A stretch of 41,822 nucleotides of DNA from Escherichia phage vB-Eco-KMB41 (OR539216.1), one strand, 5' to 3'. Positions 62 to 41,822 are shown, counted from the stretch's first letter. Numbers and translations are program-made. Notes: generated by a model from the sequence alone, not told the origin.

Positions 62-81
62 AATAGCACGAATTGCTAAAA
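62..81 (+). promoter_or_regulatory. Palindromic box site 1 (AATAGCACGAATTGCTAAAA; core TAGCA-N5-TGCTA)
   Basis: Perfect 5-bp inverted repeat with 5-bp spacer; about 22 bp downstream lies TATTAT, then a GC hairpin, SD and ATG of 153..401. The stop codon of the wrap-around ORF (64..66) overlaps the box. Confidence 0.5.
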
Positions 82-152
82 GCGATTTATCAAATGTTGT
101 TATTATCTTTTCACCGGGCGGCAATGGGTCGCCCACTACCGGAGACGAGACG

Positions 153-440: not shown

Positions 441-803
441 ATGGCAATTACAGTTAACACTCGTTTCCCGACATACACGGACGCTCTGATCGACTCGCAT
501 CGCGTCCAGGCGCTTCTCCGTGTGAACACATGCGCGAAGCTGGCCCCGGTATCGTGCAACGTGTACGAGCGCGAGAACAAGGGCGAAAAGCTGGGGTTCG
601 GCTACGTGCTGCGCGTCGGTCCGATCACAATCCACTGTAGAGGGATCACCCGGTACTCCGTGGACTACCACGACGAGGGGAGCGGCTGGACTTGCGACGC
701 GGTGACGGCGGAGGACGCTATACAAGAGGCTTACGAGTACCTGGCGAAGCGCCTCCAGTGTCTCCAGCTTGGGATCGCCATCCTGTCGGACGCTGCCGAA
801 TGA
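441..803 (+). CDS. hypothetical protein (120 aa)
   Basis: ORF with AGGAG SD about 7 nt upstream; ATGA stop/start overlap with the next ORF. Confidence 0.6.
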   Translation: MAITVNTRFPTYTDALIDSHRVQALLRVNTCAKLAPVSCNVYERENKGEKLGFGYVLRVGPITIHCRGITRYSVDYHDEGSGWTCDAVTAEDAIQEAYEYLAKRLQCLQLGIAILSDAAE

Positions 804-1036
804 TCCCGGAGAAGGTCCAGCGAAAAGCCGACGAGATTCTGGCCCGGTATTACGCGAAGGAGATCGCGCCTAAGAGGTTGAAGGGGTTCGGCAAGGTATC
901 AGCGTTCAACGTTGGCTATAGCTGGCGGCTCGTAACGTGGGACGAGGGGGAGACGTGGGATCTTTTGTCCCACGAGGAGTACAACAACAAAACGCGGGGC
1001 CGTCGTCAGCGGCTCCAGGTCAAAGGCAAAAGGTAA
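800..1036 (+). CDS. hypothetical basic protein (78 aa)
   Basis: Internal ATG of ORF 692..1036 chosen because it gives an ATGA overlap with 441..803; the longer upstream extension is Arg/Gly-rich and overlaps the previous gene. Confidence 0.45.
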   Translation: MIPEKVQRKADEILARYYAKEIAPKRLKGFGKVSAFNVGYSWRLVTWDEGETWDLLSHEEYNNKTRGRRQRLQVKGKR

Positions 1037-2820: not shown

Positions 2821-3624
2821 TGCTGCCGGGTTGACCGTGACCGTACAGACGGCGGAGGTAACGGTGTTCGGCGCGACGGTGTTCGAACTGGTGGCAATAC
2901 AGCGGTATTGACCAGCGTCCCCGGTCGCCGGGCTGGCAACGTTCAGCGTTGCGGCGGTAGCCCCGGAGATGTTCGTCCAGGAGGTCCCGCCGTTCGTGGA
3001 CTTCTGCCACTGGTAGGAGTACGGCGCGAGGCCCGTCGTGGAGTTTACCGCGATCGACAAGCTGGCTGCGGTCCCCACGGTCCAGGTGGCGGTCGCCGGG
3101 AGGTTGGTCGAGAGAGCGATCGCTGGCTTGGTACGCTCGCGCAAGCTCTCGGCGGTCTGGCCCGCGCTGTCGGTTACGCGGCAAAAATAATCGCCGTTGT
3201 TCCCTGCTGCGTACCCGGTGATCGTATACGTCGGGGAGTTCGTCCCCACTGGGTTGTCGGTGCTGGATGCCCGGCGAAACCATGCGTAAGTATACGGCGG
3301 GACGCCACCACTCACGGCGACCGTGAACGTCTTGTTACTTCCCAGTGGGATATAACTCGCCCCGGCGTCGTTGGCGTTGTTACCCGGTAAATTTTGGGTA
3401 AACACGATCGGCGGGACCAGCGCCGGATCCAGTTCGATGTAAAACATTTTCGTGGGGTCCAGGTTGGACGGTTCACTGTCCAGCCAGATCACATCCTTTT
3501 GATGGACCTTGCTCGGATCAAGGATTCGCGTCACTTTCCAGCCCATCAGGTCGGCGCGGCGGTAACGATGCCAATAAGCCATAATTTTGTCCTCGTGAAA
3601 TTGTGCGGTATACTGCCCCGGCAT
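2818..3624 (-). CDS. Ig-like domain protein (two tandem Ig-like repeats)
   Basis: Two ~80-aa repeats sharing PPYTYAW/APYSYQW and GDYFC/GQYRC motifs typical of Ig-like folds; N-terminal ~90 aa unrelated. Alternative start at Met15 (about 3582) has a better SD (GAGGA). Confidence 0.75.
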   Translation of the reverse strand: MPGQYTAQFHEDKIMAYWHRYRRADLMGWKVTRILDPSKVHQKDVIWLDSEPSNLDPTKMFYIELDPALVPPIVFTQNLPGNNANDAGASYIPLGSNKTFTVAVSGGVPPYTYAWFRRASSTDNPVGTNSPTYTITGYAAGNNGDYFCRVTDSAGQTAESLRERTKPAIALSTNLPATATWTVGTAASLSIAVNSTTGLAPYSYQWQKSTNGGTSWTNISGATAATLNVASPATGDAGQYRCIATSSNTVAPNTVTSAVCTVTVNPAA

Positions 3625-4976: not shown

Positions 4977-5031
4977 TTCGTTGTCCTCGTGTTGGTGTGA
5001 AAAGATAATAACAAAGGATAAGTGAAAGCGC

Positions 5032-5050
5032 TTTAGCAAAAAGTGCTATT
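5032..5050 (-). promoter_or_regulatory. Palindromic box site 2 (TAGCA-AAAAG-TGCTA)
   Basis: Same oriented box, followed about 22 bp downstream (minus sense) by TATTAT, then SD and ATG of 4653..4976. Confidence 0.45.
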
Positions 5051-5078: not shown

Positions 5079-5819
5079 TCAGAATGGGGAGTTTTCGATG
5101 AATACCGCGACGGCGAAGCCTTCGGGAGTGGCGGAGCGGATGTTCTTCGTTCGTGTGCTGGATCCTCCCAGCTTCGACCAGCCCGGATTATCCTTCACCG
5201 CCGGGACGCTCTGCGCTGCTGGCATACGGAAGCCGCCACCGCACCAGATCCCCGTCTGCTTCGGGTAAGCATCGCGCGGAGGGTAGATCTCCGGGTATAG
5301 CGTATGCTGGTGGTTCTCCGGCAAGTAGCCGCCGAAGTGGTAAGGGTGGAACCAGTGATCGCAAGGTCGCCACATCGTCGAGAGCCGGGAGATCTTCGGA
5401 TTCTCCAGCATCCAGGGGACCGGGTTCCGGTCCTCATAGTCGCCCTTTTCGTACCCGGCGAACATTGCCACCTGCTCCACCATGCGGGCCAGGTTAACGG
5501 CCTTCTGTTGGAAGCGCGGATCCTTCTTGCGCTTCGCTTCCCACCATCGCGCCCCGGTACAAGTAAGATCCGTACACTCGGCGAAGGATGCAACGAAGAT
5601 CACGCCGGGGCCTACCTCGTCGGCAATGCGAAGCGCTTCCGCTTCCGTGTTCTCTGCGTCGAACATCCGGCCCACACGGATCAGGTTCGGCTCGTTCGGG
5701 TCTGGGTGGATCCCTGGCTCGTGCTGCCCGTCATACATCCAGCATTCGACGCCAGCCTCCAGCCACTTGTCCACCATGATCCGGGTCAGGTTAAAAAGGA
5801 AAATTGCCTTATGCTTCAC
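5079..5819 (-). CDS. hypothetical protein (246 aa), possible nucleic-acid-modifying enzyme
   Basis: Long well-behaved ORF upstream of the terminator; contains ECTDLTC and ENPK stretches but no canonical C5-methyltransferase motif I, so function is left open. Confidence 0.7.
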   Translation of the reverse strand: MKHKAIFLFNLTRIMVDKWLEAGVECWMYDGQHEPGIHPDPNEPNLIRVGRMFDAENTEAEALRIADEVGPGVIFVASFAECTDLTCTGARWWEAKRKKDPRFQQKAVNLARMVEQVAMFAGYEKGDYEDRNPVPWMLENPKISRLSTMWRPCDHWFHPYHFGGYLPENHQHTLYPEIYPPRDAYPKQTGIWCGGGFRMPAAQSVPAVKDNPGWSKLGGSSTRTKNIRSATPEGFAVAVFIENSPF

Positions 5820-6045
5820 GGTTCAGATCCTTCTCGTATTCGTCGGCGTCACGCTTGATCAGCGCGTCCCACTGGTCCATATGGACCGGGTTAAAATCCT
5901 GCTCAAAAGAGAGATCGAGATCCCCGGCGAACAGGAGGCCCTCGGCCTCCGTGTCCACGAGGCCCCGGCGTAGTAGCTCGGCGGCGACCTTCTCCTGGAA
6001 GATGGCCCAGCGGCTATTAGTGTGACCGTCGTTATACTTCATCAC
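5809..6045 (-). CDS. hypothetical acidic protein (78 aa)
   Basis: ORF overlapping both neighbours by a few nt. Confidence 0.55.
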   Translation of the reverse strand: MMKYNDGHTNSRWAIFQEKVAAELLRRGLVDTEAEGLLFAGDLDLSFEQDFNPVHMDQWDALIKRDADEYEKDLNREA

Positions 6046-7282: not shown

Positions 7283-7338
7283 CTGCTGCCCTTCTGTTGT
7301 TGGTGGTTATTAAAGATAATTGATTAACTGTTTAGTGT

Positions 7339-7357
7339 TTTAACAAAAAGTGCTATT
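7339..7357 (-). promoter_or_regulatory. Palindromic box site 3 (TAACA-AAAAG-TGCTA, one mismatch)
   Basis: Degenerate copy of the oriented box upstream of the methylase gene. Confidence 0.35.
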
Positions 7358-7412
7358 TATGGTTTCTCACGTTTCCCTGTAGCAACATTAGCGCCGCTGG
7401 TATCGACGCTTT

Positions 7413-7438
7413 AGCCCCCGCGCCGGGGCTTTTTTTTT
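7413..7438 (+). terminator. Plus-sense intrinsic terminator-like hairpin (AGCCCC-loop-GGGGCT + T8) inside a minus-strand operon
   Basis: 6-bp GC stem followed by T8 on the plus strand only; abuts the primase stop codon. Confidence 0.45.
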
Positions 7439-8255: not shown

Positions 8256-8320
8256 CTTGCCCTCCGTTTCTTTCGCGGTTACTATAAATCATGCTTTAGT
8301 GATATTACAAGGGATAAACA

Positions 8321-10361: not shown

Positions 10362-10829
10362 ATGGCGATATTGAATAAAAAGACTGATTTCTGGCGCGAG
10401 TTTTACCCGGACCACATTCCGAGCTATTGCCCCCACGAGGACGTCGAACAGCAAAACATGGCGAGCAATATCCGGGAGATCTACGGCGATCCTCTGACTG
10501 ATCCCGACGCGCTTCTGGCGTTCCACCCAGTGAACGAGAGCGGGGCCAGTGGAGATCCTCGCTACGGGGCGAAGTTAAACGCGCTCGGACGGCTCGCCGG
10601 GATCTCTGACTGGGTTTTCCTGGAGCCTCGCGGCGGCTATGGCTTCGCGCTGATCGAGTTGAAACGGAATACCCGGAGCAAGTCCCGACTGAGCGCCGAC
10701 CAGAAAGCGGTCTTAGAACGGGCGCGGGCGCGTGGTGGCTGGACTGCTGTCGCGTGGGGCTGCGAGGCTGGTCTGGCTGCACTGGAGTATTATCTTAAAT
10801 TACCTGTTGCAAACATCACGAAAGAATGA
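10362..10829 (+). CDS. VRR-NUC domain nuclease
   Basis: Conserved D...ELK...LS..Q core (SDWVFLEP...ALIELKRNT...LSADQKAV) characteristic of VRR-NUC; the ORF track start at 10347 would overlap the helicase. Confidence 0.75.
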   Translation: MAILNKKTDFWREFYPDHIPSYCPHEDVEQQNMASNIREIYGDPLTDPDALLAFHPVNESGASGDPRYGAKLNALGRLAGISDWVFLEPRGGYGFALIELKRNTRSKSRLSADQKAVLERARARGGWTAVAWGCEAGLAALEYYLKLPVANITKE

Positions 10830-10835
10830 TTTAAT

Positions 10836-13716: not shown

Positions 13717-13950
13717 ATGAAGGAGCCTAACATGGCAGAATTAAAGGCCGTTTGCCTCGTGAAGCAAGTCCGAGAAGCGAAAGGCATCCAGCAGAAAGAT
13801 TTAGCGGAGCGAATCGGCATGATCCCGCATCAGTTGAGCCGCTACGAAAACGGGCACGAATTGCCATCTGTAACTAACCTCTGCCGGATCGCGAAGGCGC
13901 TCGACGTCTCGATCGCGGATCTGATTGAAACAGGAGTAAACCACGATTAA
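13717..13950 (+). CDS. helix-turn-helix transcriptional regulator (XRE/Cro-like)
   Basis: HTH signature QKDLAERIGMIPHQLSRYENG and LCRIAKALDVSIADL; alternative start at 13732 has AAGGAG SD. Confidence 0.75.
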   Translation: MKEPNMAELKAVCLVKQVREAKGIQQKDLAERIGMIPHQLSRYENGHELPSVTNLCRIAKALDVSIADLIETGVNHD

Positions 13951-27978: not shown

Positions 27979-28052
27979 TGTCTCGATCTCTCTGGTTTGG
28001 CGGGGCCGTTCCCCGCCGTTGAAATAACTATAACATTTGATAAAAGACGCGT

Positions 28053-28071
28053 TTTAGCAATTCGTGCTCTT
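28053..28071 (-). promoter_or_regulatory. Palindromic box site 4 (TAGCA-ATTCG-TGCTC, one mismatch)
   Basis: Oriented box followed about 22 bp downstream (minus sense) by TATAGT and a GGCGGGG-loop-CCCCGCC hairpin, upstream of 27502..27978; overlaps the stop codon of 28054..28359. Confidence 0.5.
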
Positions 28072-28359: not shown

Positions 28360-28589
28360 GCGTAAGCCCCTTCGAAGGTGGTCAGCGATAAGCCGCTGTA
28401 GTAGTGATTCAGTTCGTACACGACGCCCAGGCCATCAGCCCCGGCGCTTACTGGTTCCAGCACGAGGATTGTTATCCGGTGCGTGTCGGTTCGCTTATCT
28501 TCTGGCAACGGCTCCACGCGCTGGATGTTCTTCGCTGCGATCAGATACTTGTCGCCCGCGCTGTCAATAACTGGAATTAAGCCTCTCAC
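28356..28589 (-). CDS. hypothetical protein (77 aa)
   Basis: ORF with GTG start preceded by AAGGAG SD; forms an overlapping pair with 28054..28359. Confidence 0.55.
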   Translation of the reverse strand: MRGLIPVIDSAGDKYLIAAKNIQRVEPLPEDKRTDTHRITILVLEPVSAGADGLGVVYELNHYYSGLSLTTFEGAYA

Positions 28590-28629
28590 GTTTTGCTCCT
28601 TGTAACTGTTTAGTGATGTGTCGAGGCAA

Positions 28630-28655
28630 AGAATAGCCCGGACTTGCCGGGCTTG
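28630..28655 (-). terminator. Terminator-like hairpin after portal gene (AGCCCGG-loop-CCGGGCT)
   Basis: 7-bp GC stem followed in minus sense by ATTCTTT, about 30 bp downstream of the portal stop. Confidence 0.45.
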
Positions 28656-28683
28656 TCTTTAGCTTTTCGTGCGGTCAGACCAG

Positions 28684-36048: not shown

Positions 36049-36120
36049 TTTGTCGTCTCCAGTTGGGCGGGACCATTTCCCGCCTCTGGAAATAACTATA
36101 CAGTGATTTATCAAATGTGT

Positions 36121-36139
36121 TTTAGCAATTCGTGCTATT
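36121..36139 (-). promoter_or_regulatory. Palindromic box site 5 (TAGCA-ATTCG-TGCTA, perfect)
   Basis: Followed about 22 bp downstream (minus sense) by TATAGT, then GGCGGGA-loop-TCCCGCC hairpin, SD and ATG at 36048; overlaps the stop codon of 36135..36416. Confidence 0.55.
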
Positions 36140-36416
36140 CGTCCCAGCGCCCCGGCTTGAACAGGACGCCGCGCCGCCAGTCCTGCCACGTCCAGTAAGG
36201 CCAGCCAAACGCCATCAGCACGACGGCGCATATCAGCATAAGCGCGACGATGAAGGCCGCGAGGGGTAGGAGGGCTGGCGGGATGTGCGCCGCCTCCTTG
36301 CGCGTCAGGTTGGCGAGGTGCTTCGCCCCGCCTCCCTGGGTGAACTCGACCACGAACCAGGCTATGCCGACCAGCCACCACGCGAAGATCCAATTTAACA
36401 TTTCAATACATCCCAT
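36135..36416 (-). CDS. small integral membrane protein (93 aa)
   Basis: Two strongly hydrophobic segments (WIFAWWLVGIAWFVV and LPLAAFIVALMLICAVVLMAF). Confidence 0.6.
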   Translation of the reverse strand: MGCIEMLNWIFAWWLVGIAWFVVEFTQGGGAKHLANLTRKEAAHIPPALLPLAAFIVALMLICAVVLMAFGWPYWTWQDWRRGVLFKPGRWDE

Positions 36417-37707: not shown

Positions 37708-37780
37708 GGTCTTGCCCTCTGGTTGTTGTGGGCGTCTCGTCGCCCGGTGAAAACATATTATCAATTATCACCGGGGACGT

Positions 37781-37799
37781 TTTAGCAATTCGTGCTATT
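37781..37799 (-). promoter_or_regulatory. Palindromic box site 6 (TAGCA-ATTCG-TGCTA, perfect)
   Basis: Followed about 22 bp downstream (minus sense) by TAATAT, then GGGCG-loop-CGCCC hairpin and the ATG at about 37707. Confidence 0.55.
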
Positions 37800-38727: not shown

Positions 38728-38749
38728 ACTATATCACCTTTCAATGATT

Positions 38750-38980
38750 AAATCATGGTTACGTGAGGTTTTCATTAAGCCCTCAAAAAGTGCCAGCAAA
38801 TGGCCCCGGTTACATCATTTAAAATCTGTCACCAAATGTTAGTTAAGTGATTGAATTAAATCCGGTTACATTGCAGGTTTCATTGTCTCAAAAAATGTAA
38901 CTTGCGCTTAACTCGGTTACGGTTACAGGTTACATCTCTCTCTATATAGAGAGAGTGTAACTGTCACCGATGTAACCGGG
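38750..38980. repeat. Iteron-like array: at least 8 GGTTAC/GTAACC hexamers (three in tandem at about 38915..38933), TGTCACC motifs and a perfect 20-bp palindrome CTCTCTCTATATAGAGAGAG (about 38936..38955)
   Basis: Read directly; 255-bp non-coding gap immediately downstream of the AAA_25 ATPase gene; hexamer density far above the roughly 1 per 2 kb expected by chance. Confidence 0.7.
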
Positions 38981-38982
38981 CC

Positions 38983-40638
38983 TTAAAAGTCGTTCAGATC
39001 GTCGTCCTGATCCTCCGCTTTTGAGGATGGTTTCCAGTCCGTCGGGAGTGGCTTCTGATCGCGGATTCCACCCAGGAGCGGAGCCGCTTCTTTCGTGGCG
39101 GTCAGCGTCTCGTCTCCGGCGACCTTGATGATCCCCATCGTGTTAGTGGCGTGAAGGAATGCGCGACGGAATGCCGTCTTGTCGATCTGCGGGTCCGCGC
39201 TGTTCCGCGCCCACTCACTGAGCGCCGCCTTTGTCAGCTTCGGAGTGCGGCCTCTGCGCTTGCTGTTGTACTCGTGGACGAAGTTCACCAGTCGGATCGC
39301 GTTCTCCTCCTGCTGGCTGCGCTTCGGCCCCTCGTCGGCCTTCTCCTCCTTGTCGCCAGTCGGTACAGCCTCCAGCGCGTTAATGACGACCAGCGTCCCC
39401 AGGTTGTCGCCAATCTCCCACGCTGCCGGGTTCTGCTGCGCTTCGGGGCGTACTGGCTTCATGCGGGCCATTGCCTCGCGCTTCATCTTGACCAGTTCAG
39501 GCGGGAGCGGGACGGATTGCGTCCGCATGGCGCGAGGAGGGAGGAGCGCACAGCCTTTCGCCTTCGTGTGCTCAATGACAAAAAGCTCCTTGTCCTTGCA
39601 CTTCTTCACCATGATCTCGAATCCGGCGTTTGCCCGGAGGGTTGACGCGCCACGAGCGCCGCGCTCGGTGTCCTTCCCGGTGTGGTGGATCACCATCACG
39701 GCACAGTTGAGCATTTCCGCCAGCTTCGCCGCGTTCGCCATCAGGATCGCCGCCACGTTGTTGTCGTTCTCGTTGAAGTCCTGCCCGCCTACCCATTCGA
39801 TCACCTTGCCGTCCGCGTCACGCTTCGCGGTCTGGCCCACCTTCTGGCCCGCGCTGTTGGCGCTGTAGGTATCAATGACCACGAGGGCCGGTGCGTTCTC
39901 CTCAATGCCGAAGAACGGGGAGGAGAGGACCTTCCCGGCGAAGCGCTGGAGGATCTCCGCGTTATGGAGGGGGACCTGTTCGCCGATGATAAACAGGTTA
40001 TTCAGATCCTTGTTGCCGTTGCGCTTGTACTTCCATCCCGCGTAACGTTCACGGACGCCGCTCGCATCCTCCGGCGCGAAGTACAGGACGGATCCCTGTC
40101 GGACCGGAAGCCCGGCGAAGTCGATCCCGGTGGCGACACAAATCGCCATCTGTAACGCGCAAAAAGTCTTTTTAGCGCCCGACTCGCCGACCAGGAAGCC
40201 CACGGAGCGCTCCGGGACCAGCGACTGGATCACATAGTTAACGGGGGTGATTTTGTTCCCGGCGCGTAACTTGTCCAGGAACTCGTCCGGCTGGTCTGCC
40301 AGCAGTTCGGCGATCGCCTTCTTGTCCTTCTCGCGCTGGTCCTCTGTCGTCTCGCTGCGTGGCTTCGCGACGGGCTTCTGGTTCTCGTCCAGTACGAGGT
40401 CCCACTGGTGATCGTCCTCATTGTCGCCGAACGCGTAAAGCTCCATCTCCGCCAGTGATAGGCCCTGCTCTGCTGCCTGGTCTGCCGCGATCGCCATCTG
40501 CTGGTCCATGTCCGCCTCTGTCGGCTCCGGCGCTGCGTTCAGCCATTCCGGGACGGGTTCCAGACGAGCCTCGCCTGGGAGGATCTGGTCCAGTAGTTCC
40601 TCGCGGGTCGGTTCCTGCTGTTCTTCGTCGTGCATCAT
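38983..40638 (-). CDS. RecA-fold ATPase of the AAA_25/RepA-like type (putative replication initiator or helicase), 551 aa
   Basis: Walker A GESGAKKT, Walker B LVVIDTYS, downstream VMVIHHTGKD motif typical of RepA-like ATPases; acidic N-terminal ~130 aa; flanked on both sides by GGTTAC repeat clusters. Confidence 0.75.
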   Translation of the reverse strand: MMHDEEQQEPTREELLDQILPGEARLEPVPEWLNAAPEPTEADMDQQMAIAADQAAEQGLSLAEMELYAFGDNEDDHQWDLVLDENQKPVAKPRSETTEDQREKDKKAIAELLADQPDEFLDKLRAGNKITPVNYVIQSLVPERSVGFLVGESGAKKTFCALQMAICVATGIDFAGLPVRQGSVLYFAPEDASGVRERYAGWKYKRNGNKDLNNLFIIGEQVPLHNAEILQRFAGKVLSSPFFGIEENAPALVVIDTYSANSAGQKVGQTAKRDADGKVIEWVGGQDFNENDNNVAAILMANAAKLAEMLNCAVMVIHHTGKDTERGARGASTLRANAGFEIMVKKCKDKELFVIEHTKAKGCALLPPRAMRTQSVPLPPELVKMKREAMARMKPVRPEAQQNPAAWEIGDNLGTLVVINALEAVPTGDKEEKADEGPKRSQQEENAIRLVNFVHEYNSKRRGRTPKLTKAALSEWARNSADPQIDKTAFRRAFLHATNTMGIIKVAGDETLTATKEAAPLLGGIRDQKPLPTDWKPSSKAEDQDDDLNDF

Positions 40639-40779: not shown

Positions 40780-41217
40780 ATGTCACTGTTTGACGATGAA
40801 GCGCCACGCGCCCCACTTCGGGCCAACGTAGCGCCACGTAAGACGCCACAGGAGAGACTCCTGGAGATACTGGAGAAGGTCCGCTCCACCGATCCGTCCA
40901 TCCATGACGCGATCGAACAGGGGAGAATGGATCCTTATCTGCCGACGGTCGAGACGCGGAACGCTTTTCTAACTCTGCGCCCGTCGGAGCAAATATTCGC
41001 GGCGTTCTGGGACTGCCCCGGCGTCGATCGTAAGAAGTTAATGGACCTATGCCGACACGCCGGAAAGATGGAGCGAGCCGGAAAATTACGGGACCTTAAG
41101 GTGGACCGCTCGAAGCTGGCGACCACTGAAAGCGGGATCCCCCCAGGCGTCGAGATTGGCCCGGAGTTGGCCCTCGCCGCACTACAATGCAAGCAAGCCA
41201 TGAGGAAAGAGAGATGA
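40780..41217 (+). CDS. hypothetical protein (145 aa)
   Basis: ORF with GGAGG SD 7 nt upstream, first gene of the rightward unit leaving the divergent control region; the overlapping minus-strand ORF 40935..41798 is rejected. Confidence 0.65.
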   Translation: MSLFDDEAPRAPLRANVAPRKTPQERLLEILEKVRSTDPSIHDAIEQGRMDPYLPTVETRNAFLTLRPSEQIFAAFWDCPGVDRKKLMDLCRHAGKMERAGKLRDLKVDRSKLATTESGIPPGVEIGPELALAALQCKQAMRKER

Positions 41218-41822
41218 TCAGATATATCGCAGTAACCGAAGAAGCGGACCAGGACGAGAGCATGGCGTCCCACATCCCGGAGAGTCAGATCGAGCGCATC
41301 GATCGCGCTGCTAATGGTAAGGCTATCCTGATCGTTCGTGAATATCGCGAGAAGTGCCGCGAAGATTCCGAGTGTTACGGTCGGAAGGAATGGCGGATCG
41401 ATGGCTACGAGTCGCAAGAGCGCTACAGCGTGATGAAGTTCGACGACCTGATCGCCTGGCTGAATGGCATCCCGCCGGAGCCGATGGTGGTTGACTTCGA
41501 TCGCCTGTCGCCGGAGGAGCGCGAGAACGTCATGGACAATCTGGTGGCGGCGCGTCATGCCCTGCGCAACGTGAACAGTAAGACCGTACTCCAGCCAGCG
41601 CCAGCGCATCACGTCGGCCTCGACTCGGACGTGTGGGCCGTGGTCAAACTGCTGGAGGCTCGCGAGTGGGCCGAACATTGCACGACGACCGAACTCGGCG
41701 GACGTCTGGAGTCGGAGATCACGAAGCTGGTCGGGACTGAGAACGAAACGGCGGGCAAGCTCAAACGGGCGGAGCAATTGCTGGCGGAGATCCATCACGC
41801 GGTCAATAACGACGGCGGGCTT
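41214..41822 (+). CDS. hypothetical protein, 3'-truncated at window end (203 codons here; continues in frame at 1..66 if the molecule is circular)
   Basis: ATGA overlap with 40780..41217; open to the last base; frame closes exactly at the window end and resumes at position 1 to a TAG at 64..66. Confidence 0.6.
   Translation, partial: MIRYIAVTEEADQDESMASHIPESQIERIDRAANGKAILIVREYREKCREDSECYGRKEWRIDGYESQERYSVMKFDDLIAWLNGIPPEPMVVDFDRLSPEERENVMDNLVAARHALRNVNSKTVLQPAPAHHVGLDSDVWAVVKLLEAREWAEHCTTTELGGRLESEITKLVGTENETAGKLKRAEQLLAEIHHAVNNDGGL

Follow-up and report, generated by a model that had tools for sequence, protein, structure and literature searches.

The genome of Escherichia phage vB-Eco-KMB41 (OR539216.1; 41,822 bp, all of which was analysed and is called the window here) carries a short box of the form TAGCA-N5-TGCTA in front of several separate gene groups, and one copy stands upstream of the small open reading frames (ORFs) that precede the terminase and portal genes. 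What reads this box? An earlier reading of the sequence alone had taken it for a palindromic operator through which one dimeric phage regulator drives distributed promoters. The repeat is real and statistically strong, and it is a promoter element that, by the predicted starts, lies at the position of a class II activator site. It also matches the marbox, the asymmetric 20-bp site for one monomer of the host AraC-family activators MarA, SoxS and Rob (and of RamA in Salmonella and Klebsiella). We consider it fairly probable that the boxes are marboxes, and that phage promoters are activated by host proteins of the MarA/SoxS/Rob type.

A search of the window for TAGCANNNNNTGCTA with at most one mismatch gave exactly six matches (at 64, 5034, 7341, 28055, 36123 and 37783), where shuffled versions of the window led us to expect 0.36; none of 100 shuffles reached six. 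Each box lies upstream of a gene and on that gene's strand, so the fixed orientation and the number of copies reported by the sequence-only reading both stand. Read towards the gene, all six are A-TAGCAC-(GAA/TTT)-TTG(C/T)TA-AAA. The 15-nt core GCACGAATTGCTAAA is identical in four copies (66, 28067, 36135 and 37795) rather than in three, as had been counted before, with site 4 deviating only in a flanking T. The box is followed by 22–23 nt, a −10-like hexamer (TATTAT, TATAGT, TATCTT or TAATAT) that often has TG before it, a start region of the form tc(A/C), a leader, a Shine-Dalgarno sequence and a start codon, the last of these 73–92 nt from the box. The distance of 22–23 nt had been noted already and was measured at all six sites, TATCTT being new to the list of hexamers; counted from the 20-mers used below rather than from the 15-mer, it corresponds to 18–19 nt.

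MarA, SoxS and Rob are stress and antibiotic-resistance activators of the host, and an older consensus for their site, AYnGCACnnWnnRYYAAAYn, has Y at position 19. The published marbox core is 5′-GCAHWWWWTGYYAAA-3′ (PMC6900184). With at most one mismatch allowed, this core finds the same six boxes and no other place in the window, each on its gene's strand (0.10 expected from shuffles), and sites 2 and 3 match it at 15 of 15 positions. We then scored about 83,000 window positions with a weight matrix made only from 28 E. coli MarA sites determined by chromatin immunoprecipitation sequencing (Sharma et al., PMC5684230, Table 1). The seven highest scores belonged to the six boxes (18.8–19.7 bits) and to a seventh, degenerate copy of the box (site 7, 17.7 bits), which was absent from the earlier reading; the next score was 14.6 bits. 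For comparison, E. coli's own MarA sites, scored by leaving one out, reach 20.4 bits at most. One substitution separates the phage cores GCACGAATTGCTAAA and GCACTTTTTGCTAAA from three sites that bound MarA strongly in vitro, those at yneO, yeeF and ypeC, and the reverse complement of the marRAB marbox in MG1655, ATGCCACGTTTTGCTAAATC, is identical to site 2 at 16 of 20 positions. The window sites have both the sequence of a marbox and, in all seven cases, its forward orientation. They are listed below with their scores from the MarA matrix; all transcription starts (+1) are predictions from hexamer positions.

63..82, plus strand: site 1, 20-mer ATAGCACGAATTGCTAAAAG, 19.7 bits, upstream of four small ORFs and then holin, endolysin and spanin genes (153–2793)
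98..106, plus strand: extended −10 of site 1, TGT-TATTAT, 18 nt past the 20-mer; predicted +1 at about 113, leader hairpin 116–134, ATG 153
5030..5049, minus strand: site 2, 20-mer ATAGCACTTTTTGCTAAAGC, 19.0 bits, 15/15 to the published marbox core, upstream of small ORFs and a Hoc-like decoration gene (4976 down to 2818)
5005..5010, minus strand: −10 of site 2, TATTAT with TGT before it, 19 nt past the 20-mer; predicted +1 at about 4998, leader unstructured, ATG 4976
7337..7356, minus strand: site 3, 20-mer ATAGCACTTTTTGTTAAAAC, 18.8 bits, 15/15 to the marbox core despite a broken palindrome, upstream of a methylase gene, RusA, a small ORF and a methylase gene (7282 down to 5079)
7313..7318, minus strand: −10 of site 3, TATCTT, 18 nt past the 20-mer; predicted +1 at about 7306, ATG 7282
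28051..28070, minus strand: site 4, 20-mer AGAGCACGAATTGCTAAAAC, 19.7 bits, upstream of scaffold, major head and tail genes (27978 down to 14009)
28027..28035, minus strand: extended −10 of site 4, TGT-TATAGT; predicted +1 at about 28020, leader hairpin 27999–28017 (z = −3.5), ATG 27978
36119..36138, minus strand: site 5, 20-mer ATAGCACGAATTGCTAAAAC, 19.7 bits, the locus of the earlier reading, upstream of small ORFs and then terminase and portal genes (36048 down to 28684)
36095..36100, minus strand: −10 of site 5, TATAGT, 18 nt past the 20-mer; predicted +1 at about 36088, leader hairpin 36066–36084 (z = −3.3), ATG 36048
37779..37798, minus strand: site 6, 20-mer ATAGCACGAATTGCTAAAAC, 19.7 bits, upstream of five small ORFs (37707 down to 36135)
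37755..37763, minus strand: extended −10 of site 6, TGA-TAATAT, 18 nt past the 20-mer; predicted +1 at about 37748, leader hairpin 37730–37745, ATG 37707
28656..28675, minus strand: site 7, degenerate 20-mer ACCGCACGAAAAGCTAAAGA, 17.7 bits, 3′ of the portal gene; dyad lost, GCAC...AAA kept
28630–28635, minus strand: hexamer of site 7, TATTCT, upstream of GTG 28589; the spacer is a terminator-like hairpin, 28635–28653

At site 6 the script chose GATAAT, two nt upstream of the hexamer listed; TAATAT was read by eye and fits the common 18-nt register. The leaders proved less uniform than had been claimed, with a GC hairpin at four of the six original sites (1, 4, 5 and 6) and unstructured leaders at sites 2 and 3.

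The predicted geometry of the promoters agrees with that of known class II marboxes. The −10 hexamer begins 18 nt past the 20-mer at five sites, 19 nt past it at one and 20 nt past it at site 7. From these distances the centre of the box falls at −40.5 to −42.5 relative to the predicted start, in the place of the −35, in line with the class II position near −41.5 proposed before. At a 17-bp spacing from the −10 hexamers (TATAGT, TATTAT, TAATAT, TATCTT and TATTCT) only 1–3 of 6 bases match TTGACA. The TTGCTA half of the box was rejected as an ordinary −35, as it had been in the earlier reading, because the spacer would be 22–23 bp. Class II marboxes are forward-oriented, overlap the −35 position and cluster near −41, at promoters with a canonical −10 and without a recognisable −35 (PMC10268841; PMC12052159; PMC8811837). 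The window sites likewise have canonical −10 hexamers and no recognisable −35.

The paradigm of a class II Mar/Sox/Rob promoter is micF, and cryo-electron microscopy structures of such complexes are available for RamA, SoxS and Rob. In E. coli (NC_000913.3) micF has ACAGCACTGAATGTCAAAAC, then 18 nt, TAGAAT, 7 nt and the +1; the phage has ATAGCACGAATTGCTAAAAC, then 18 nt and TATAGT. Promoters of the micF kind and those of the phage share the core GCAC-N7-AAA, the forward orientation, the 18 nt to a sigma-70-type −10, a centre (predicted in the phage) at about −41 and the lack of a −35. They differ in number and purity, as the phage has seven near-consensus copies that stand before lytic genes in 42 kb of a virulent genome, whereas host sites are degenerate. 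The same spacing recurs beyond the window. In 2.07 Mb of related phage DNA we collected 661 distinct marbox-like sites; for 66% of them the distance to the best downstream −10 hexamer is exactly 18 nt, and for 79% it is 17–19 nt.

Which genes stand behind the boxes? The groups are the lysis cassette (site 1), small ORFs with the Hoc-like gene (site 2), methylase and RusA genes (site 3), scaffold, head and tail genes (site 4), terminase and portal genes (site 5) and small ORFs (site 6). The sequence-only reading was thus right to see distributed promoters rather than a single late promoter. Its label "early-looking" describes them poorly, however, because the replication genes (two primases and the operon that runs from the helicase to an XRE-family protein) have no box and use other promoters; the AT-rich regions in front of these genes carry a different palindrome, ATCAY-N6-RTGAT.

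To see how the box is distributed, we compared related genomes. The window covers the full genome of a P22-like podophage; this genome is circularly permuted, has 59% GC and is 84–89% identical to the Murrayvirus phages IME_EC2, ST231, sortsyn and Lumpael of E. coli and Salmonella. Sites of at least 17 bits number 6–7 in each of five Murrayvirus genomes (the window included), 7 in Skarpretter, which belongs to a distant genus, has 55.8% GC and carries identical box sequences, and 17 in T1. There are none in four Sortsnevirus-like genomes (Sortsne, IME279, sortkaff and Kc237). In two alignments the orthologous Sortsnevirus promoters have the same −10, leader and hairpin, and the place of the box is taken by a −35, TTGCAT or TTGCGG, at 17 bp. 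As these orthologues carry an ordinary −35 there, the box would appear to be a functional substitute for one.

Two further observations concern the Sortsnevirus promoters. In one of the alignments (A2) the Sortsnevirus sequence TATCACGAAATAATTAAAA stands opposite the Murrayvirus box. Spacers and upstream regions of the box-less promoters repeatedly contain the heptamer ATCACGA (Sortsne 3129–3180, 39299–39363 and 41096–41150, with homologous sites in loci L005 and L006), perhaps a marbox in decay or a regulatory site of another kind.

The element itself has been described before in a siphophage. Phage TLS has 21 copies of a 21-nt intergenic direct repeat, aaATAGCACnnnTTGnTAAAA; they point along transcription, and the start codons lie about 76 nt further on (German et al. 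2024, PMC11447400). It has AAA, TTT and GAA subtypes and is present also in T1, Rtp and Rogue1; its function was left among the unanswered questions, and marboxes were not mentioned (PMC11447400). The window boxes have the identical consensus, including the GAA/TTT/AAA subtypes, run in the same direction and lie at a similar distance from the start codon (73–92 nt against about 76 nt). The window differs in being the genome of a Murrayvirus podophage rather than a Drexlerviridae siphophage, and in having 7 copies rather than 18–25. Our literature search found no link between the T1-like repeats, or any phage promoter, and marboxes, MarA, SoxS or Rob (subscription-only papers lay outside it), and nothing usable on transcriptomes or start sites of T1-like phages. 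The element is thus known from TLS; its presence in Murrayvirus and Skarprettervirus and its reading as a marbox appear to be new.

Exact 18-mers of the box are common to the window, TLS, Rtp, T1 and IME347. Each is found in at least 120 IMG/VR loci, in several copies per genome and in genomes of 46–53 kb, the T1-like Drexlerviridae phage IME347 among them. A blastn search of INPHARED with a 30-mer gave 4,078 places in 1,065 phage records, nearly all with Enterobacterales hosts; by organism name the largest groups were Klebsiella (502), Escherichia (354), Shigella (35), Citrobacter (29), Salmonella (28), Enterobacter (28) and Cronobacter (19). In the T1-like phages the 21-nt repeats stand before most genes. 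Whether these repeats and those of Murrayvirus and Skarprettervirus, as found in the 1,065 records, are all class II marboxes seems to us an evenly balanced question. Matches also came from 21 records of "Campylobacter" phages about 47.6 kb long. Their hosts would not be expected to have MarA, SoxS or Rob, and the matches are probably due to chance; in the one record that was listed, a single stretch of 20 nt agrees (E = 0.05). Single copies of the box occur in RB43- and Lw1-like myophages of about 176–180 kb.

Does any phage protein accompany the box? In 40 small, unknown or otherwise unassigned phage proteins scanned against Pfam, ten of which were also scanned against PHROG, no domain of the AraC, Mor/C or sigma type came up. 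Nor did tblastn with SoxS and MarA (the MarA query having been checked against PDB entry 1BL0) find a consistent homologue in the 2.07 Mb of box-bearing phage DNA; a match with E of 0.06 inside the "endonuclease" gene of IME_EC2 and a half-domain match in a single IMG/VR locus (L189) were judged irrelevant. Homologues common to the window and T1 are limited to Dam methylase, primase, helicase, VRR-NUC nuclease, exonuclease VIII and Erf. Every window ORF that has homologues in both Skarpretter and T1 is present also in at least three of the four box-less Sortsnevirus-like genomes, and phylogenetic profiling that included T1 found no phage protein family that follows the box. A single ORF, 5809–6045 on the minus strand (78 amino acids), is present in Murrayvirus and Skarpretter and not in Sortsnevirus; it belongs to a PHROG of unknown function and was set aside, having no T1 homologue. 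That 20-mers should be identical across such divergent phages points to a slowly evolving reader common to all their hosts, which would be a host protein.

How do other readers of the box compare? The proposal of the sequence-only reading, a dimeric phage helix-turn-helix protein (the XRE protein encoded at 13717–13950, or a zinc-ribbon protein) on a palindromic operator, draws on the 5-bp inverted arms TAGCA and TGCTA and on the XRE protein (HTH_3, E = 9e-17), since no other transcription factor is recognisable in the genome. Activation from near −42 is, moreover, within the reach of small XRE and C-proteins; examples are lambda cI at PRM and the controller proteins of restriction–modification systems. 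The box, however, lacks the symmetric conservation, the dyad-keeping variants and the indifference to orientation that mark a palindromic operator. C is constant at position 6 and T at position 10, its mirror, A always precedes the box and AAA always follows it where a dyad would need T...A, and all copies are co-oriented with transcription. Functional-looking variants in related genomes (TTGTTA, TCGCAC and GCACGAAAAGCTAAA) destroy the dyad and keep GCAC and YYAAA. Strong marboxes look palindromic in any case, because GCA...TGC belongs to the marbox consensus. The XRE protein is also better conserved in the box-less Sortsnevirus (about 75% identity) than in the box-bearing Skarpretter (about 40%; both values estimated by eye from the alignment), it has no T1 homologue, and the ATCAY-N6-RTGAT palindrome at the replication-gene promoters is its likelier operator. 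We regard this proposal as scarcely plausible. The same asymmetry separates the box from the sites of dimeric class II activators (CRP and FNR at −41.5, lambda cI at PRM), which likewise overlap or replace the −35 at about −41 but are true dyads. Alternatively, a phage-encoded or virion protein without detectable similarity to AraC would bind the box and activate from about −41, much as Mor/C of Mu or MotA of T4 do, and the likeness to the marbox would be convergent or coincidental. The position and the missing −35 suit an activator, the phage sites are more uniform than host marboxes, the phages have many small proteins without known function, and the 78-amino-acid ORF mentioned above has part of the required distribution, although it fails in T1. 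Still, we think such a protein unlikely. The identical 20-mer occurs in podophages with 59% GC, in Skarpretter and in T1-like siphophages with 46% GC, and the proteins that these share serve only replication and recombination and are found also in the box-less Sortsnevirus. A match of 17.7–19.7 bits to an independent host matrix, together with the exact spacing of micF, is unlikely to be a coincidence. Finally, in T1 boxes also stand before clusters of small ORFs at both genome ends, which are taken to be early genes; if they are, the factor that reads the box must exist before infection.

The box could also work without an activator, as an extended upstream element of the UP type that RNA polymerase itself reads. 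Or it could serve as a stoperator that depends on a repressor, or as some other site of the enhancer type. The TLS paper names UP elements, stoperators and enhancer-binding sites as possibilities (PMC11447400), the A-tract makes the 3′ end of the box AT-rich, and a TG-extended −10 could suffice for initiation. But an invariant GCAC is foreign to UP elements, and so is the position of the box. UP elements lie at −59 to −38, and the box at −50 to −31. Stoperators of the mycobacteriophage type are repressor-bound sites within transcription units that block elongation, whereas the rigid 18 nt to the −10 and the −35 in the orthologous promoters mark the box as a substitute for part of the core promoter rather than a roadblock; nor does any repressor follow the box in its distribution, and the phages are virulent. 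Taken as a group, these possibilities strike us as distinctly improbable. A sigma-54 promoter was rejected on inspection of the sequence, the likeness in the GCAC and TTGC blocks being superficial. The sigma-54 consensus is TGGCAC-N5-TTGCW, with the GG and GC elements 10 bp apart, whereas the box is TAGCAC-N3-TTGC, with a spacing of N3 rather than N5, AG in place of GG and a sigma-70-type −10 22 nt further on. The middle promoters of T4 (MotA/AsiA) and the late promoters of Mu (Mor/C) resemble those of the window in having a −10, no −35 and an upstream box, but they use phage factors, and none was detected here; the MotA box, moreover, is centred near −30.

Under the host-activator reading, then, a monomer of a MarA-family protein would sit on each box in forward orientation and cover about −50 to −31 of a promoter of the sigma-70 type, where the −10 is good and often extended by TG and a −35 is absent. 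One of its helix-turn-helix motifs would contact GCAC and the other YYAAA. The protein would take the place of the −35 contact and hold RNA polymerase through sigma region 4 and the C-terminal domain of the alpha subunit, as in the published class II structures, and transcription would start about 7 nt past the hexamer. The seven promoters would serve the genes for lysis, head decoration, DNA modification, packaging, and head and tail, and it is probable that this phage, like more than 1,000 others, relies for most of its genes on a regulator of the host and not on one that it encodes. That MarA, SoxS or Rob binds and activates at the boxes, and which of them does so, we infer from sequence. 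Since Rob is constitutive, it is the first to consider for unstressed cells; under stress MarA, SoxS or RamA would take over.

Several points weigh against this. MarA and SoxS are scarce in unstressed cells, and Rob, though constitutive, is mostly sequestered and inactive without inducers (PMC2787020; PMC5684230); with so low a supply of activator, it also counts on this side that these phages plaque on MG1655 in ordinary medium (PMC7552041). The phage sites are far more uniform than host marboxes (ATA before GCAC, TT at 11–12 and A at 19), which could reflect a different and more specific binder rather than selection for maximal affinity. A TG-extended −10 could give substantial activity without an activator, a fast-evolving or virion-borne phage protein could escape homology searches, and the start sites rest on hexamer prediction.

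What would follow if the boxes were indeed read by host activators? Lytic coliphages and Klebsiella phages would owe a large share of their transcription to a regulon, Mar/Sox/Rob(/RamA), that is responsive to antibiotics, oxidative stress and bile. Phage expression, and possibly phage–antibiotic synergy, would hinge on multidrug-resistance regulators, and replicating phage DNA could in turn titrate the MarA-family proteins. This would be a new host dependence, in which virulent phages without an RNA polymerase, a sigma factor or a recognisable activator organise their transcription through a host stress activator, while their sister Sortsnevirus phages have plain −35 hexamers at the same promoters. 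For the T1-like repeats, whose function was explicitly left open, the marbox reading supplies a testable hypothesis. It would matter for phage therapy too, where Weberviruses and T1-like phages are common candidates. The strength of phage promoters could differ between susceptible and resistant hosts, because mar, ramA and soxS are often de-repressed in multidrug-resistant clinical isolates, and could shift with antibiotics, salicylate or bile.

Some features of the promoters and their surroundings deserve mention in their own right. In four of the seven transcripts the predicted 5′ end is followed after 3–4 nt by a GC stem-loop of 5–7 bp. Sortsnevirus leaders have kept these hairpins, which may be 5′-end stabilisers. 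At site 7 (28589–28675, minus strand) the GC hairpin at 28635–28653 spans the spacer between box and TATTCT. In Sortsne this hairpin fills the 17 bp between the two hexamers of a TTTACA/TATTCT promoter; a terminator and a promoter appear to overlap here. In T1 (L208; for example 1453–1520, 2272–2340 and 3538–3600) the −10 of box promoters lies inside short inverted repeats such as GGGGTA..TATAGT..TACCCC; were the repeats to fold, as a hairpin in read-through RNA or as a cruciform in DNA, the hexamer would be in the loop or the stem.

The palindrome ATCAY-N6-RTGAT is perfect at 8288–8303, 10815–10830 and 38733–38748 and imperfect at 38752–38767, in AT-rich DNA before replication and early genes, and is probably the true operator of the XRE protein encoded at 13717–13950; similar ATCA...TGAT repeats were read by eye in the corresponding Sortsnevirus regions. 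Between a primase gene and site 3, a GC hairpin at 7413–7430, with A9 on one side and T8 on the other (7404–7438), looks like a bidirectional intrinsic terminator. A plus-strand ORF of at least 187 amino acids (41260–41822) continues past the right end of the window and is completed at the left end, at 1–40, directly before the box of site 1. In the cluster upstream of the lysis genes, a 78-amino-acid ORF at 800–1036 (plus strand) encodes a ParE-like toxin domain (PF24732, E = 5e-18), with no evident antitoxin partner.

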